Under the pieces are notes generated by a model. The model had not been told where the DNA came from. It searched no databases and saw nothing but the letters and a program-made list of their open reading frames with translations. This document shows positions 123-5,696 of a DNA stretch of 5,696 bases, one piece after another. How positions within the stretch are numbered: the stretch's first letter is position 1; each line of letters starts with the position of its first letter. The position numbers were made by a program, and so were the translations under genes. This DNA comes from a virus (lineage: Duplodnaviria > Heunggongvirae > Uroviricota > Caudoviricetes), in IMG/VR virus record IMGVR_UViG_2706794691_000016. The stretch is one strand, 5' to 3'.

Positions 123-145
123 AAGATGCATTTTTAATGCATGTT
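123..145 (+). promoter_or_regulatory. Putative NsrR-type operator: AAGATGCATTT-t-TAATGCATGTT, an 11-1-11 imperfect inverted repeat, just upstream of the DUF1971 gene
   Basis: Seen in sequence: two ATGCAT cores in inverted-repeat context at 123-133 and 135-145. A TTGACA -35-like hexamer lies at 106-111. From memory the NsrR consensus is AAnATGCATTT-n-AAATGCATnTT and E. coli yeaR is in the NsrR regulon. Not verified by scoring. Confidence 0.45.
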
Positions 146-160
146 TTGGAGGAGGTGGTT

Positions 161-577
161 ATGACACACAAGAGAATTCCTAAAGATTGGGTAATCAAAC
201 GCTCAACTCCGTTCTTCACAAAAGAGAACGTACCTTCAGCGTTATTAACACATCATAATACAGCAGCAGGTGTTTTTGGGCAGTTGTGCGTAATGGAAGG
301 CACTGTAACATATTATGGTTTNNNNNNNNNNNNNNNNNNNNNNNNNNNNNNNNNNNNNNNNNNNNNNNNNNNNNNNNNNNNNNNNNNNNNNNNNNNNNNN
401 NNNNNNNNNNNNNNNNNNNNNNNNNNNNNNNNNNNNNNNNNNNNNNNNNNNNNNNNNNNNNNNNNNNNNNNNNNNNNNNNNNNNNNNNNNNNNNNNNNNN
501 NNNNNNNNNNNNNNNNNNNNNNNNNNNNNNNNNNNNNNNNNNNNNNNNNNNNNNNNNNNNNNNNNNNNNNNTTGTAA
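161..577 (+). CDS. DUF1971 domain protein (YeaR-like, tellurite-resistance-related family)
   Basis: ATG at 161 preceded by GGAGGAGG (148-155) with a 5-nt spacer. Visible N-terminus MTHKRIPKDWVIKRSTPFFTKENVPSALLTHHNTAAGVFGQLCVMEGTVTYYG resembles E. coli YeaR as I recall it (TRSTPFw, GV.. L.VM.G.V.Y.GY pattern). The 3' end lies in or just after the 322-571 mask; 577 is the first visible in-frame stop, so the end is uncertain. The ORF-track start at 137 is rejected because it lacks an RBS and sits inside the operator. Confidence 0.6.
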   Translation: MTHKRIPKDWVIKRSTPFFTKENVPSALLTHHNTAAGVFGQLCVMEGTVTYYGXXXXXXXXXXXXXXXXXXXXXXXXXXXXXXXXXXXXXXXXXXXXXXXXXXXXXXXXXXXXXXXXXXXXXXXXXXXXXXXXXXXXL

Positions 578-689
578 ATATATTGGTTCTACATTGACAG
601 GAGACTTCAACCATAAGAAGTAATCTGAATACTTGAGCAATAAATTTACTTAAGATTAATGAGCGCACCTTGCCGGACAAAGATAAACC

Positions 690-708
690 AAGGTAACACC
701 TTTTTTCT
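690..708 (+). terminator. Weak candidate intrinsic terminator: AAGGT-aac-ACCTT hairpin followed by TTTTcT
   Basis: 5-bp stem, 3-nt loop, then a T-tract, downstream of the DUF1971 gene. The stem is short and AT-rich, so this is weak. Confidence 0.2.
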
Positions 709-1127
709 AGCCAGTATGTAATCAATCAGAAAGCCGCTCCATAAGAACAACAGCAAGACAATAAATTGCCATTACAGCCGCAATAGCCAGCGCACATTTG
801 AGAACCAGCACGACAACCCCCTGTATTAGACGCACACCAGTCCTGATAAATATGAGGCTGTCTCGTCAGTGATTCAATACAACTATTGGGTATAGTTTCT
901 GTGATTTTATTCTGTAGAAATGGAACACAACAACCAGTCACCACCAGCACTTCCTTAAATGCTCTAAGTCAGAAACAAGCCAACATTTTAGTCCGCTTTG
1001 AGCGATCTGCAGACATTGCTAGCAGCCTTCTGTGTGAATTCTCAGGGAGCAGGTCGGCATAGCATCACGTTGAGGCTCTTACCCTACTTGTTCACACCAA
1101 CCCTAACTCCACAGACTGATTCATAAA

Positions 1128-2024
1128 TTAGTAATCTGCGTGTTTCGCACTTTTCAGAAATGCTTTCATATTTTCATTAGGTCGCTCAATTTCGAAGTTA
1201 CTTCCATATAACTCTTGTAATTTTGGCCATAACTTACTTAATAACCCTCTCCTGCGATAAAATGGATGTATCCAAACGGTAGATAGGTACGGAGAATTTG
1301 CATTTGAATTGTTTATTGTGACCAGCCCAACTAAACATTGTCGATAACCACTATTATCCATTGATTGTATTTCTTCGACGAATGGATACGCGATTACATC
1401 AGTCCAACCATGATCGGTTGTATCCCATTGCATTCCGTCATGACATTCCTTCGACTGATAGCGGCGTAAAGCTACACACGCGAGCTTTTGCCAATCTGGA
1501 GAATTAATTGTGATCTCTTCATCGTATGACGCGCCTATTGGAGCGGGTATTGGTCTGATTAATCCAGCATGGCATTCATCATAGAACTTCATGNNNNNNN
1601 NNNNNNNNNNNNNNNNNNNNNNNNNNNNNNNNNNNNNNNNNNNNNNNNNNNNNNNNNNNNNNNNNNNNNNNNNNNNNNNNNNNNNNNNNNNNNNNNNNNN
1701 NNNNNNNNNNNNNNNNNNNNNNNNTCTTAAGAGTTTAATTAAGTTAATACAAGCTTCTTCACTAGTCTTGCCGTTGATGCGAAGTATGTTAGGACTAAAG
1801 TAATATTCATCCATATCAGGGAATGCAGCTTCGCAAAACTCCTGTACATAATTTAGCACCTGGATTCTACAGAGATCATCATAGCTGGTAATAACTAAGG
1901 GGGTATCTTCATTACTATTATGATTATCAATAATGCAATCTATAGCGAGACTTACTGCTTTGCGTATCACTTCAGTTGAATCTAACGACTCTAAAAATTT
2001 TGTCTTTCGTGTGCGAATATCCAT
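1128..2024 (-). CDS. Hypothetical protein P3 (298 aa) with a GNAT-acetyltransferase-like C-terminal region and an unrecognised N-terminal region
   Basis: Single open frame on both sides of the 1594-1724 mask. ATG at 2024-2022 with an AGGT SD-like element 4 nt upstream, starting 15 nt after the P2 stop. C-terminus ...VWIHPFYRRRGLLSKLW...NENMKAFLKSAKH resembles GNAT motif A and the C-terminal N..A..FY.K motif by eye only. Two ECH-G motifs (DECHAG, KECHDG) about 43 residues apart. Confidence 0.7.
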   Translation of the reverse strand: MDIRTRKTKFLESLDSTEVIRKAVSLAIDCIIDNHNSNEDTPLVITSYDDLCRIQVLNYVQEFCEAAFPDMDEYYFSPNILRINGKTSEEACINLIKLLRXXXXXXXXXXXXXXXXXXXXXXXXXXXXXXXXXXXXXXXXXXXXMKFYDECHAGLIRPIPAPIGASYDEEITINSPDWQKLACVALRRYQSKECHDGMQWDTTDHGWTDVIAYPFVEEIQSMDNSGYRQCLVGLVTINNSNANSPYLSTVWIHPFYRRRGLLSKLWPKLQELYGSNFEIERPNENMKAFLKSAKHADY

Positions 2025-2039
2025 GTATGACCTGCGCTA

Positions 2040-2602
2040 TTAAAATTCATGAATGAACGGTTTGTCATCTGGTTGCAAAATGGTGGTTTTATTCGTTGCT
2101 ACATTTAAACTGTTGTAGAGCATAATTGCCAGGTTCGATGCATTTTCAATCAGCGTTTCAAGATCCTGGTCTGTAATCACTACGAGGTTCCCTTCTTTAT
2201 CCTTTCCACCACGATGCACTAAGTGATTTCGATTGAGGGTTGCCAATTCAATAGCTTCTATCGGACAGTCTTTTTGTACTTTTATATCGAATGTAGCTTC
2301 ATAGCGGTCGATTACCTTTTTAGTGCTATGCCAGCTTGCACTGATCAAGTGTTCCTTGATTGACCTGATTAGCTCTCCCCTAATTTTCTCGATGGGTTCA
2401 CCCTTGAAAGGCAACGCAGCAATATCTTTGCTTACTTTAAATTCAGTCTTACCTTTTTCTATACAATTGGCTATGTAGACATCATCTTTCTCTATAGAAT
2501 TAATGAATAGCTCAACATAAAGCGTTTCCAAAGCTGTAATAACATTCGTGTAGAGCAAACTAAGCAAGTGGTTTTTTTGCTGTTGTTCAGTTTTATCTTT
2601 TG
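2040..2602 (-). CDS. Hypothetical protein P2, C-terminal 186 aa visible, containing a candidate HEPN-type Rx4H motif (RNHLVH, codons at 2214-2231)
   Basis: 186-codon open frame in AT-rich DNA ending at TAA 2040-2042; the N-terminus is inside the 2603-2852 mask. Motif context ...ELATLNRNHLVHRGG... fits the R-[N]-x3-H signature of HEPN RNases. The family call is a motif-level inference only. Confidence 0.65.
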
Positions 2603-2852
2603 NNNNNNNNNNNNNNNNNNNNNNNNNNNNNNNNNNNNNNNNNNNNNNNNNNNNNNNNNNNNNNNNNNNNNNNNNNNNNNNNNNNNNNNNNNNNNNNNNN
2701 NNNNNNNNNNNNNNNNNNNNNNNNNNNNNNNNNNNNNNNNNNNNNNNNNNNNNNNNNNNNNNNNNNNNNNNNNNNNNNNNNNNNNNNNNNNNNNNNNNNN
2801 NNNNNNNNNNNNNNNNNNNNNNNNNNNNNNNNNNNNNNNNNNNNNNNNNNNN

Positions 2853-3072
2853 CATAGCCACCTTCTCTACTTTCATACGGACAAGCATTTGCCGGATCTT
2901 CAAAGTTTTCAAAGAACCAGTTTTTCATTACTTCGAGTTGATCTTTTTTGCTTATGTATTTTAAAGATTTTAGTGGAACTTTCTTTCCATTAACCTCGAA
3001 AACAATTTTCACGATGTAACGCTCCCTTGTATCAATTGCGCAACTATTATACCACAGCGAAATACAGGGCAT
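2853..3072 (-). CDS. Hypothetical small protein P1 (N-terminal 73 aa visible; 3' end within or just past the 2603-2852 mask)
   Basis: ATG at 3072-3070 preceded by AAGGAGG with a 6-nt spacer. Translation MPCISLWYNSCAIDTRERYIVKIVFEVNGKKVPLKSLKYISKKDQLEVMKNWFFENFEDPANACPYESREGGY. Under a length-preserving mask it is in a different frame from P2, so it is either a separate upstream gene or there is a frameshift. The first visible in-frame stop is at 2593. Confidence 0.5.
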
Positions 3073-3110
3073 AACCTGCCTCCTTAAACTAACATACCAT
3101 GAGCCAGCAA

Positions 3111-3136
3111 TGTCCGCTATTGGCACAAAGCGGACA
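3111..3136 (-). promoter_or_regulatory. Perfect 8-bp inverted repeat TGTCCGCT-N10-AGCGGACA upstream of P1, next to a TTGACA hexamer on the coding strand; candidate operator or promoter element
   Basis: Seen in sequence in the 137-nt gap between the gene Y stop (3211) and the P1 start (3072). The function is inferred. Confidence 0.25.
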
Positions 3137-3210
3137 ACCACGCTAGCTCTCCCCTGTGCCAGAAAAATGTCAATTTACATATGAACTAATGCTCTTTGAT
3201 CTAGTAACGT

Positions 3211-3627
3211 CTATAAATACCGAAGATTTCCTTGATAAAATGCCAGTACACGTTTCATAACTTCACTCTTCCGGCACTCGCGACAGATTATGTTCTGACG
3301 CCTGTCATAGCGGCGTATTTCTCCGTCTGGTAATGACCAGATAAGGTCAGGATCAACCACAACCGTTTTTTTCACCTTTGCCCTGGATAGTTTTTTGCGG
3401 GCGTTTTTCCAATCCTTACGAGCCTGTTCAGACGGGAATAACCCATAGCCAGAGTTGTATACATCGCCACTGGCAACCAACTCTCTGGCAAGAATGCTCA
3501 TCAGATATCTTGTCGCACCTGTCTTGGCCTCCAGTTGCCTTAACGTCTCGCGCCCACTCTGGCGTACCAACTCAACAACCTGCTCCTTAATTTTTTCACG
3601 CTCTTCCTGTGTAAAAACTTTTGCCAT
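3211..3627 (-). CDS. Hypothetical prophage protein Y (138 aa) with a possible helix-turn-helix region and a basic C-terminal half
   Basis: ATG at 3627-3625 with GGAGG 5 nt upstream; stop TAG at 3213-3211. Translation MAKVFTQEEREKIKEQVVELVRQSGRETLRQLEAKTGATRYLMSILARELVASGDV... Lies immediately downstream of gene X in the replication-module operon. No family recognised. Confidence 0.65.
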   Translation of the reverse strand: MAKVFTQEEREKIKEQVVELVRQSGRETLRQLEAKTGATRYLMSILARELVASGDVYNSGYGLFPSEQARKDWKNARKKLSRAKVKKTVVVDPDLIWSLPDGEIRRYDRRQNIICRECRKSEVMKRVLAFYQGNLRYL

Positions 3628-3642
3628 AAGCGCCTCCGGCAA

Positions 3643-4203
3643 TCACTTTTCCGACACAATACGACTGGAGGAATCGACAATCTGTCGGACAATATCCCGG
3701 TGCTTGTTCAGCTCCCGCAGCGCGGCGCAGACTCGCTCCCACTTCTGGACATGATTTTTCGCCCGACGCAGTTCGCGGTTTGCCATATGCAGCGATGGTA
3801 AAACTAGGTCATCCGCTTGCGTTTCAGTAAACGATGGCAGCGACTGCACAATGTCCGCCACAGTTTCTGTTTTAATATCTTCCTGTGTTGCCGCTTCCTG
3901 TACTGGTAACGCAACACCGGCTGGCTGAGGAANNNNNNNNNNNNNNNNNNNNNNNNNNNNNNNNNNNNNNNNNNNNNNNNNNNNNNNNNNNNNNNNNNNN
4001 NNNNNNNNNNNNNNNNNNNNNNNNNNNNNNNNNNNNNNNNNNNNNNNNNNNNNNNNNNNNNNNNNNNNNNNNNNNNNNNNNNNNNNNNNNNNNNNNNNNN
4101 NNNNNNNNNNNNNNNNNNNNNNNNNNNNNNNNNNNNNNNNNNNNNNNNNNNNNNNNNNNNNNNNNNNNNNNNNNNNNNNNNNTTCCGGCAGTTCTGCCTG
4201 CAT
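3643..4203 (-). CDS. Hypothetical prophage protein X (C-terminal 96 aa visible; start at or upstream of 4203)
   Basis: Open frame ending at TGA 3645-3643, 15 nt before the gene Y start. Visible C-terminus ...LHMANRELRRAKNHVQKWERVCAALRELNKHRDIVRQIVDSSSRIVSEK. An ATG (MQAELPE) sits at 4203-4201 but the frame stays open upstream into the mask, so the true start is unknown. Confidence 0.55.
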   Translation of the reverse strand: MQAELPEXXXXXXXXXXXXXXXXXXXXXXXXXXXXXXXXXXXXXXXXXXXXXXXXXXXXXXXXXXXXXXXXXXXXXXXXXXXXXXXXXXXXPQPAGVALPVQEAATQEDIKTETVADIVQSLPSFTETQADDLVLPSLHMANRELRRAKNHVQKWERVCAALRELNKHRDIVRQIVDSSSRIVSEK

Positions 4204-4476
4204 TGGCTGTTCCTGCTGAACGTNNNNNNNNNNNNNNNNNNNNNNNNNNNNNNNNNNNNNNNNNNNNNNNNNNNNNNNNNNNNNNNNNNNNNNNNNNNNN
4301 NNNNNNNNNNNNNNNNNNNNNNNNNNNNNNNNNNNNNNNNNNNNNNNNNNNNNNNNNNNNNNNNNNNNNNNNNNNNNNNNNNNNNNNNNNNNNNNNNNNN
4401 NNNNNNNNNNNNNNNNNNNNNNNNNNNNNNNNNNNNNNNNNNNNNNNNNNNNNNNNNNNNNNNNNNNNNNNNNAAT

Positions 4477-5208
4477 TCACCCATCGNNNNNNNNNNNNNN
4501 NNNNNNNNNNNNNNNNNNNNNNNNNNNNNNNNNNNNNNNNNNNNNNNNNNNNNNNNNNNNNNNNNNNNNNNNNNNNNNNNNNNNNNNNNNNNNNNNNNNN
4601 NNNNNNNNNNNNNNNNNNNNNNNNNNNNNNNNNNNNNNNNNNNNNNNNNNNNNNNNNNNNNNNNNNNNNNNNNNNNNNNNNNNNNNNNNNNNNNNNNNNN
4701 NNNNNNNNNNNNNNNNNNNNNNNNNNNNNNNNNNNNNNNNGATAGCTGCCGCTAAGTGATTCTTCCCGGTACCAGGTTTTCCGCTGAACGCAAAATTTGT
4801 ACACCCGGTCATCAGTTCATCGGCGATGGATTTCGCCTGGCTTAACGCGTATCGCTGGCCGTCGTTCTGCACCTGGTAATTCGCAAACGAGCATTTACGG
4901 TGCAACGGCTGGATGCCTGAGCGATTCAGAATTTTTTCCACCCGCAACTGGCGATTNNNNNNNNNNNNNNNNNNNNNNNNNNNNNNNNNNNNNNNNNNNN
5001 NNNNNNNNNNNNNNNNNNNNNNNNNNNNNNNNNNNNNNNNNNNNNNNNNNNNNNNNNNNNNNNNNNNNNNNNNNNNNNNNNNNNNNNNNNNNNNNNNNNN
5101 NNNNNNNNNNNNNNNNNNNNNNNNNNNNNNNNNNNNNNNNNNNNNNNNNNNNNNNNNNNNNNNNNNNNNNNNNNNNNNNNNNNNNNNNNNNNNNNNNNNN
5201 NNNNNNNN
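4477..5208 (-). CDS. DnaC-like (IstB/AAA+) replicative helicase loader of a prophage replication module
   Basis: Visible segment 4741-4956 translates to NRQLRVEKILNRSGIQPLHRKCSFANYQVQNDGQRYALSQAKSIADELMTGCTNFAFSGKPGTGKNHLAAAI. This closely parallels E. coli DnaC as I recall it (FNRSGIRPLHQNCSFENYRV...FIFSGKPGTGKNHLAAAI), including the Walker A motif. Both ends are masked: 4477 is the first visible in-frame stop, which would make the C-terminus about 38 aa shorter than E. coli DnaC, and the start is somewhere in 4957-5208. Confidence 0.75.
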   Translation of the reverse strand, partial: XXXXXXXXXXXXXXXXXXXXXXXXXXXXXXXXXXXXXXXXXXXXXXXXXXXXXXXXXXXXXXXXXXXXXXXXXXXXXXXXXXXXNRQLRVEKILNRSGIQPLHRKCSFANYQVQNDGQRYALSQAKSIADELMTGCTNFAFSGKPGTGKNHLAAAIXXXXXXXXXXXXXXXXXXXXXXXXXXXXXXXXXXXXXXXXXXXXXXXXXXXXXXXXXXXXXXXXXXXXXXXXXXXXXXXXXXXXXDG

Positions 5209-5601
5209 CAATAGCCTCCGGCTCGAATTTTTTAGACGCTCGTTTTTGGCGAGGGGGAGATCAGTATTTAGATCTTCCTCTTCCTCTTCCTCTGGTAACG
5301 CTTTTTGATCCGTTTGTGTAACGCTGGCAGCGTTACCTTTTCGTTTCAGTTCGCGTATTTTTGTTACTCGCTCGTTTGTAACCGCCCGTTTTTTTTAGAG
5401 CTTTTTCCGTTATGACGTTCAAAGTTAGGTAGAGAAAGCCCTCCGTCATTTTCGACCAGCCATCCAACCTGAATTAACGCATCAGCAAAACCAGACATAA
5501 AAGTGATGCGATCTATTGCACTTTTTGTAACGCCGCGAGCGTTACAATCTGCATTACCGTCTATCATTTGTTGATCCGCCCATGCCCAGAAGCGAATAAC
5601 C
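5209..5601 (-). pseudogene. Lambda O-like replication initiator gene, 5'-truncated by an IS insertion and frameshifted at an A8 tract
   Basis: Frame 0 (5601-5367) reads VIRFWAWADQQMIDGNADCNARGVTKSAIDRITFMSGFADALIQVGWLVENDGGLSLPNFERHNGKSSKK and stops at 5366-5364. The -1 frame opens inside the A8 tract (plus-strand T8 at 5389-5396) and runs open into the mask as KKRAVTNERVTKIRELKRKGNAASVTQTDQKALPEEEEEEDLNTDLPLAKNERLKNSSRRLL with no start codon. The ...QGG..P...NEGKSPKTR region of lambda O, as I recall it, aligns across the shift. Sits immediately upstream of the DnaC-like gene. Confidence 0.55.
5295..5382. repeat. Iteron-like repeats inside the O-like gene (candidate prophage origin): GTAACGCT at 5295-5302, palindrome GTAACGCT-GGC-AGCGTTAC at 5318-5336, GTTAC at 5363-5367, GTAAC at 5378-5382, interspersed CGTTT(G) motifs
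   Basis: Repeats seen directly in the sequence. By analogy to lambda, where ori lies within gene O and consists of dyad-symmetric iterons next to an AT-rich tract; here the T8/A8 tract and flanking AT-rich bases are adjacent. Confidence 0.35.
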
Positions 5602-5696
5602 TGAGGTAGCCTGAGTTTAACGGACACTCCTTCCTGAAATAGAATGGCATCAGAAGGAGCTAATAATGAGCAGAAAAACCCAACGTTACTCTAAAG
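5602..5696 (+). mobile_element. Left end of an IS3-family insertion sequence (IS600-like by recollection), truncated by the window edge
   Basis: Sequence beginning TGAGGTAGCCTGAGTTTAACGGACAC (IS3-family ends start with TG), followed by a strong SD (AAGGAG, 5654-5659) and an ATG at 5666 encoding MSRKTQRYSK, which matches my memory of the IS600 OrfA N-terminus. The O-like gene is cut off at this junction. Only about 95 bp is visible and the right end is absent, so the exact boundary and identity are unconfirmed. Confidence 0.5.
5666..5696 (+). CDS. IS3-family transposase OrfA, first 10 codons only (MSRKTQRYSK), continues beyond the window
   Basis: ATG at 5666 with AAGGAG and a 6-nt spacer. N-terminal peptide consistent with IS3-family OrfA (IS600-like) from memory. 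Confidence 0.45.
   Translation, partial: MSRKTQRYSK

Follow-up and report, generated by a model that had tools for sequence, protein, structure and literature searches.

A two-gene prophage cassette encoding a HEPN-domain protein and a GNAT-fold partner: a predicted, uncharacterised conflict module

The two genes of the cassette

We analysed a cassette of AT-rich genes on the minus strand of a 5,696-nt stretch of tailed-phage DNA (IMG/VR record IMGVR_UViG_2706794691_000016), this whole stretch being referred to below as the window. The cassette is a two-gene operon. Its upstream gene, A (2040..3012, minus strand), encodes a protein of 320 amino acids that joins an N-terminal HEPN/RES-NTD1 domain to a HEPN domain of the RiboL-PSP type. 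Its downstream gene, B (1128..2024, minus strand), encodes a protein of 333 amino acids in unmasked relatives, in which an orphan N-terminal domain precedes a minimal module with the GNAT fold. The original prediction had placed three co-directional genes here, P1, P2 and P3, directly downstream of prophage replication genes. Orientation and position were borne out, but the count of three was not. Seven runs of N mask parts of the window (322-571, 1594-1724, 2603-2852, 3933-4182, 4224-4473, 4487-4740 and 4957-5208), and the lengths of these runs, mostly ~250, are unequal to those of the true sequence, so that neither the reading frames nor the protein lengths derived across these runs can be relied on. 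Comparison with locus L001 of E. coli FORC_081, which shares 100% identity with the unmasked parts of window positions 572-3811 and matches at 100% identity on both sides of the two masks that cut the genes, showed that the mask in A (2603-2852) puts 250 N in place of 240 bp, and that in B (1594-1724) 131 N in place of 236 bp. Sequence beneath the window's own masks was taken from identical relatives and not read. The 10-nt mismatch in A shifts the frame, which is why P1 and P2 had been seen separately. In the unmasked L001 they form a single continuous open reading frame (ORF), followed 15 nt on by an ORF of 333 amino acids. Annotation by the Prokaryotic Genome Annotation Pipeline (PGAP) likewise gives exactly two hypothetical proteins, WP_014639476.1 (A, 320 amino acids) and WP_000354966.1 (B, 333 amino acids). 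We therefore set aside the three-gene reading as an artefact of mask length, and the length given for P3, 298 amino acids, becomes 333.

The A protein (phrog_17908) was modelled with a predicted local distance difference test score (pLDDT) of 84.5. The visible part of its N-terminal HEPN/RES-NTD1 domain lies at 2853..2937 (minus strand) and the domain continues under the mask; in the family alignment M49, W52, F53, P60, P65 and an E70-G-G stretch are invariant. The domain profile PF18870 matched 30 of 39 A-family members at E<=1e-3, and a relative fused to a PIN domain (P0116) reached 28.7 bits, over the cut-off of 27.4. The C-terminal domain, visible at 2079..2602 (minus strand), is all-alpha and was found to have the HEPN fold. 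It carries RNHLVH (2214..2231, minus strand), a predicted catalytic Rx4H motif whose R and H are R278 and H283 in the 340-residue numbering of the supposed longer protein, or R258 and H263 in the 320-residue numbering. The R, the H and the next R are invariant in 39 diverse A-family sequences. PF18735, the RiboL-PSP-HEPN profile, matched 14 of the 39 homologues at E<=1e-3, the homologue P0101 scoring 36.1 bits against a cut-off of 28.4. A search of A for a RES domain gave no match, and a search of PDB sequences gave no solved-structure relative. From the profile matches on family members and from the fold, A is assigned to the HEPN/RES-NTD1 + HEPN family. The motif and the HEPN call that had been made for P2 were thus both correct, on the grounds of conservation, homologue profile matches and fold.

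The B protein (phrog_16994) was modelled with a pLDDT of 89.3 and a predicted template modelling score (pTM) of 0.81. Its N-terminal alpha/beta domain (amino acids 1 to ~175, visible at 1725..2024, minus strand) is an orphan by sequence: profile libraries, PDB sequences and a fold search yielded neither a sequence relative nor a convincing structural one. The remainder, amino acids ~180-333 (1131..1593, minus strand), has the GNAT fold in a fold search of the model, which confirms the GNAT-like C-terminus that had been proposed for P3 behind an N-terminal region of about this length (~175 amino acids). The sequence WIHPFYRRRG (1245..1274, minus strand) occupies the beta4-alpha3 region at the position of GNAT motif A. 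Within the B family W286, H288, P289 and R292 are invariant. Of the Q/RxxGxG/A loop of motif A, the first position is the invariant R292, the G position holds G, K, R or Q, and the last position is L. Two homologues pass the GNAT profile PF00583, P0164 with 27.0 and P0166 with 26.2 bits, and by its modelled fold B would have an acyl-CoA-dependent modifying activity. No solved-structure relative of B was found by sequence in the PDB. An exhaustive profile search over 1.84 billion representatives recovered only ~10 full-length relatives, so the full-length family is rare, together with many stand-alone proteins of ~160 amino acids, homologues of the GNAT-like half with the same signature motifs. 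In these the P and R are invariant and the H nearly so; they constitute an uncharacterised family without a Pfam model. Scans of viral contigs for relatives of the stand-alone module offered no usable conserved stretch or returned no match.

An ATG at 3072, preceded by AGGAGG, was considered as the start of A and rejected, since the 20 codons that it would add (3013..3072, minus strand) are not conserved as coding sequence and are disordered in the model. They are interrupted by stop codons or lack an ATG start in L116, L117, L125, L127 and L129, and residues 1-20 of the extended protein have a pLDDT of 30-41 in the AlphaFold model. Homologues of A begin at MKIVF, corresponding to a GTG at 3012, which is also the PGAP start. 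The supposed N-terminus of P1 is noncoding, putative leader and promoter DNA, and within it lies an extended -10 promoter-like element, TGGTATAAT (3046..3054, minus strand). The pattern TGnTATAAT is conserved in the listed loci whose A is at least 90% identical, even where the reading frame is broken, and is not kept at the same position in L127 and L129 (A ~85%). A simple promoter scan did not list TGGTATAAT because its -35 region is poor. Together with the ribosome-binding site AAGGGAG (3022..3028, minus strand), 9 nt upstream of the GTG, the element would form the predicted promoter and leader of the A-B operon.

The junction between the genes, TAA-TAGCGCAGGTCATAC-ATG (2025..2039, minus strand), spans 15 nt, the distance given at the outset between the end of P2 and the start of P3. 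The Shine-Dalgarno sequence of B (GCAGGT) is weak, and a scan of the junction found no terminator-like site. The short junction, the weak Shine-Dalgarno sequence and the lack of a terminator suggest that B is probably co-transcribed with A and translationally coupled to it. Of the strong ribosome-binding sites that each gene was said to own, the AGGAGG before 3072 is not at a real start and the signal of B is weak. The G+C content of A (36.6%) and B (39.1%) is lower than the 47.5-49% of the flanking replication and nin-like genes, in agreement with the visibly lower GC noted at the outset.

Linkage, separability and genomic niche

At loci where B is at least 75% identical, A (83-100% identity) lies directly upstream almost always. 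In all, 26 distinct A-B pairs co-diverge, with A falling to 83% and B to 78% identity and the junction fixed at 14-15 nt. Both genes are under purifying selection, with a nonsynonymous to synonymous rate ratio (omega, dN/dS) of 0.12-0.18 for A and 0.2-0.48 for B. Outside this clade the two genes part: all surveyed B relatives of 56% identity or less are without A. Conservation of the gene neighbourhood, suggested originally as a check on the prediction, holds for the fixed junction of the 26 pairs but not for the wider A family: of the 80 genome loci that were retrieved with its profile (L002-L081), 78 are without B (78 of 81 counting L001). Clustering of all neighbours at 80 A-family loci revealed no recurrent partner, and the closest solo A (L004, Aeromonas, 76% identity) has a terminator directly after the gene. 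From this distribution the pairing of A with B seems to go back to a single event.

Loci that seemed to hold B without A (86% identity) proved to be internal deletions of A, one deletion junction being shared by L101 and L123 and another being present in L102. All of them keep part of the A leader, the last 13-20 codons of A, the A-B junction and an intact B. Between L101 and L123 the dN/dS of B is 0.02, indicating that selection keeps B in the absence of A. Within the paired clade no derivative had kept A and lost B, an asymmetry that is compatible with A as a toxin and B as its antidote, and equally with the loss of a costly nuclease and the retention of a useful independent gene. L102 sits downstream of a P4-alpha-like primase-helicase gene and has lost the -10 element, so that expression of its B may depend on that upstream gene. 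The same locus has an in-frame mini-ORF of 13 codons (M-LQPDDKPLIHEF, then the stop) that ends at the stop of A.

In the window the cassette occupies a slot directly after a DUF977 gene in a Rac-like lambdoid prophage, downstream of DUF1376/YdaU-like, DnaC-like, DUF1627 and DUF977 genes. The DUF977 (YdaW-like) gene (3211..3642, minus strand; PF06163, E 3e-31) is the upstream border of the slot and lies outside the cassette. In L151-L154 it borders different cargo; related E. coli prophages with the same flanks have in this place an AIPR (Abi-like) gene (one relative), a gene of DUF5677 or a hypothetical gene on the reverse strand. The site after DUF977 is thus a variable cargo slot, and the description of the cassette as AT-rich accessory genes in a cargo position was well founded. 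The other border in the window is a DUF1971/TehB-like gene (137-577, plus strand), convergent with the cassette (PF09313, E 2.6e-26 for the L001 copy); in other prophages hokD/rem is found there.

Some further features of the flanks may be recorded. A Cys-rich, unannotated ORF of 74 amino acids (MLVVTGCCVPF...CAGYCGCNGNLLSCCCSYGAAF; window 726-950, minus strand; L001 8346-8570) lies downstream of B, with ~89% conservation among other E. coli copies of the prophage. It was considered as a third gene and rejected, being absent from diverged A-B loci; it belongs with the flanking prophage DNA, outside the cassette, and could encode a small Cys-rich peptide or be a mere chance ORF. Rfam and ARAGORN found no RNA genes. 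The replication genes on the upstream side of the FORC_081 cassette (L001 4440-5558) are decayed, with a frameshifted ydaU and fragments of DnaC and DUF1627. Window positions 3811-5696 have no match in L001 and seem to keep longer DnaC-like and DUF1376-like ORFs, which points to the window coming from another prophage copy, one with less decay.

Among 5426 complete E. coli genomes, 200 (~3.7%) carry the whole cassette, which was absent from the cultured phage genomes searched. It is not confined to the prophage slot. A pair with identical proteins lies between relB and IS26 on an E. coli IncF conjugative multi-replicon plasmid (L155, NZ_CP069974, 34967-36946), a few kb from erm(B), so the cassette travels with resistance plasmids, and further pairs were found on a Citrobacter IncFIB plasmid and in a Serratia grimesii chromosome. 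A and B therefore move as a unit among the prophage slot, plasmids and chromosomes. A 3.3-kb contig labelled as a Collinsella sp. metagenome-assembled genome (JAIHTM010000277.1, L002) also carries A and B, 100% identical to those of E. coli, and is probably a binning contaminant in an actinobacterial assembly. The copy of B in L122 has an internal TAG stop, and in E. coli MB56 (H6, NZ_CP073936) an IS3-family element (ISSen4) is inserted within the cassette region, which indicates that some copies are decaying.

Distant relatives of B are found in defence islands or mobile elements. In two lineages they adjoin an Abi_2 gene, and elsewhere an AAA_13 ATPase that is possibly PrrC/RloC-like, judging by its C-terminal sequence. 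They also lie next to a HerA-like ATPase and near HigBA. Further settings are an island with a retron-type reverse transcriptase, SLATT_5 and DUF4062, another that holds TerB, BrxC/D, Mrr_cat, HEPN_Toprim_N and a helicase, and an integrative and conjugative element with ParE; some relatives stand alone among housekeeping genes. The repeated closeness of B relatives to HEPN-type genes is suggestive. Directly downstream of the B relatives of an Idiomarina-type subclade (L143 3199-4020; L158 9021-9842; 77% identical) lies a gene for a conserved protein of 273 amino acids that matches nothing in Pfam and whose Cys-rich N-terminus resembles a zinc ribbon; this protein may be an alternative partner of B. 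The stand-alone homologues of the B module, in the cases where context could be recovered, overlap the stop of, or follow, primase/helicase-type genes of a phage and of satellite-like elements (L165 3619-5411, L166 536-3420 and L168 1761-4614), these genes being DUF3987, DUF3631 and an unannotated ORF of 802 amino acids.

Possible functions of A and B

Taken together, the domain make-up of A, the fold of B and the mobility of the pair make the cassette a credible candidate for an uncharacterised conflict module, with a predicted HEPN RNase effector and a previously unreported GNAT partner; an anti-phage or toxin-type role is plausible. In the explanation that we favour, with a probability of roughly 0.55, A would be a latent HEPN RNase of abortive infection that acts autonomously, and B a co-transcribed but separable modifying enzyme of the GNAT type. 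HEPN domains of A would pair into a composite Rx4H site, and the protein's own N-terminal domain, NTD1, would hold that site off as a sensing or auto-inhibitory module, a role suggested by analogy with aRES, HepS, ApeA and DARNA. A phage cue would then free A to cut RNA (tRNA or mRNA), and the ensuing arrest of translation would constitute abortive infection. B would act as an acyl-CoA-dependent modifying enzyme that is functionally separable from A. For B to form an independent second layer is a possibility that we rate slightly short of an even chance, and we are more tentative about a role as a brake or modulator of A or of the RNA target of A.

In favour of this explanation are the single ORF of each gene, the largely solo A family and the PF18870 domain that it has in common with the validated stand-alone aRES, the fold and invariant residues of B, the 26 co-diverging pairs and their carriage on plasmids and a chromosome, the variable slot, the defence-island and mobile-element settings of B relatives, the presence of the cassette in 200 E. 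coli genomes, and purifying selection on both genes. A number of observations weigh against it. The window's own proteins fall below the profile thresholds that some of their homologues pass: A matches PF18870 over amino acids 46-112 with E 2.5e-4 and 21.8 bits against a gathering cut-off of 27.4, it has no direct match to PF18735, and B scores 19.9 bits for PF00583 against a gathering cut-off of 20.7. The glycine of motif A is unconserved in the B family, and in the model the B chain stops one helix beyond beta5 and lacks the usual C-terminal strands of GNAT proteins. The search of defence-system catalogues that the original prediction had called for gave no match for A or B in PADLOC-DB v2.0.0, the best E values for A being 0.01-0.026 over short stretches and B having none. 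A of 76% identity or less is solo, and B of 62% or less is without A. As the pairing appears to be of single origin, its co-occurrence counts as one evolutionary event and is weak evidence of shared function, and the two independent deletions of A that kept B imply that the pair is not obligate. The placement of stand-alone B modules after primase/helicase genes would also fit a function that benefits the phage. The claim that the genes form one candidate system is thereby weakened, since A is mostly found without B, distant B without A, and A has been deleted twice.

A rival reading is a type VII-like toxin-antitoxin arrangement, in which A would be a constitutively dangerous HEPN RNase toxin and B an antitoxin that acetylates A or protects its RNA target, and in which loss or inhibition of B on infection or plasmid loss would release A. 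A junction of coupling length is fixed in the operon. B-only derivatives arose twice in the A-B clade and A-only derivatives not at all, which is the asymmetry expected of an antitoxin and a toxin, and B remained under strong purifying selection after the loss of A (omega 0.02, L101 vs L123). Distant B relatives lie at most two genes from Abi_2 (twice), a possibly PrrC/RloC-like AAA_13 and HEPN_Toprim_N, and the HepT/MntA pair is a precedent for covalent inhibition of HEPN toxins. However, nearly all members of the A family are solo, and in the closest solo relative, L004, a terminator follows the gene directly, which argues that A generally needs no antidote; the B relatives L164, L157 and L161 have no HEPN gene nearby; the pairing seems to be of single origin; and no lysine is specifically conserved in the A proteins of the paired clade. 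On balance we consider this arrangement unlikely. In the most novel form of this reading, the enzymatic partners of HEPN RNases would gain a new class in B, a GNAT that acetylates the nuclease or its tRNA target, and the pair would act as an acetylation-gated (type VII-like) toxin-antitoxin or abortive-infection switch. Were B a general HEPN regulator of this kind, its closeness to Abi_2, PrrC/RloC-like AAA_13, HEPN_Toprim_N and RiboL-PSP genes and the survival of B-only loci would be explained together; we regard this as doubtful, and a shade more so than the antitoxin role.

B might also serve the mobile element and not host defence, for example as an anti-defence or replication-accessory acetyltransferase placed in one operon with a HEPN moron to which it is unrelated. 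Stand-alone B modules overlap or follow DUF3987, DUF3631 and 802-aa ORF genes, the A-deleted L102 lies after a P4-alpha-like primase-helicase, and the window's cassette lies after a replication module. However, full-length B relatives are found in chromosomal defence islands and an integrative and conjugative element without phage replication genes, no cultured phage record carries B, and the site behind replication genes is in its own right known as a slot for accessory and defence genes (PMC13043305). Such a role has, in our judgement, a low probability. The internal stop in B of L122 and the IS3-family insertion in one E. coli cassette are what would be seen if A and B were decaying or neutral cargo, a class in which we include a housekeeping or metabolic role for both. 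Purifying selection on A and B, catalytic motifs that are invariant across phyla, and repeated carriage of the cassette by mobile elements and defence islands all speak against it, and we think it very improbable that neither is a conflict gene.

B would extend the repertoire of defence islands by a rare GNAT family that PADLOC lacks. Since the cassette is present in ~3.7% of E. coli and on resistance plasmids, it may influence phage susceptibility in clinical and livestock strains. The natural variants that have deleted A and retained B offer a ready genetic test between B as an antidote and B as an independent function.

Relation to known systems

The combination of these proteins had not been recognised as any named defence or toxin-antitoxin system. 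For the pair this holds, with no PADLOC match and no paper found in literature searches that names A, B or the A-B pair; NCBIfam has nothing for either protein, and PHROGs places them in families of unknown function only. The HEPN half, however, was already catalogued in 2013.

Among GNAT proteins, TacT, AtaT, ItaT and KacT are small GNAT-fold toxins of type II toxin-antitoxin systems, carried on mobile elements, whose target in the translation apparatus is aminoacyl-tRNA. They differ from B in having a ribbon-helix-helix (RHH)/DUF1778 antitoxin as partner, of which no ORF was found in the cassette or its flanks, and B has an extra orphan domain of ~175 amino acids. B also persists alone without an antidote, which makes it unlikely to be a toxin. 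Among HEPN toxins, HepT is described as being AMPylated by MntA, a covalent inhibition of the toxin. There the partner is a nucleotidyltransferase and HepT has ~130 amino acids without an N-domain, whereas B has the GNAT fold; no minimal nucleotidyltransferase (MNT) partner adjoins A, whose sole partner is B. ApeA and DARNA (PD-T7-3), HEPN nucleases that each work as a single protein, carry an additional sensing domain and act by abortive infection through cleavage of tRNA anticodons; they differ from A in HEPN family and domain order. Both ApeA and PD-T7-3 are expected to be represented in PADLOC v2.

HepS of the Gifsy-1 prophage is a single-HEPN abortive-infection anticodon nuclease with an Rx4-6H motif that combines sensor and effector (Nature 2026, PMC13043305). 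Like A, it is a HEPN protein in the accessory slot of a lambdoid prophage beside the replication genes. It differs in being a single domain of fewer than 250 amino acids with no NTD1 and no partner, whereas A has 320 amino acids and two domains, and the A-family profile did not return the HepS chains (PDB 9OIJ/9OIK) from PDB sequences at E<=10.

The HEPN/RES-NTD1 + HEPN architecture itself was catalogued computationally in 2013 (Anantharaman et al., PMC3710099), in a study that describes RiboL-PSP-HEPN domains as conserving Rx4-6H and as distantly related to AbiD/AbiF. A is assigned to this family by the profiles of family members and by fold. No partner GNAT is noted there, the terms 'GNAT' and 'acetyltransferase' each occurring 0 times in the paper.

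Validated counterparts by N-terminal domain are the aRES proteins, stand-alone anti-phage proteins of defence islands that join PF18870 to a RES domain and arrest growth on infection by depleting NAD+ (Osterman et al., bioRxiv 2026, doi 10.64898/2026.01.28.702374). Their authors define them through the PF18870 domain (doi 10.64898/2026.01.28.702374). By the profile matches of its family, A shares the N-terminal PF18870 domain, and most of the A family shares the lack of an operonic partner. The effector of aRES is RES, whereas the C-terminal domain of A is HEPN, and in the window A is operonic with B across the 15-nt junction. Should A prove to be protective against phages, the aRES proteins would have in it a counterpart with a HEPN effector, and HEPN/RES-NTD1 would be a portable sensing or regulatory module that drives different effectors.

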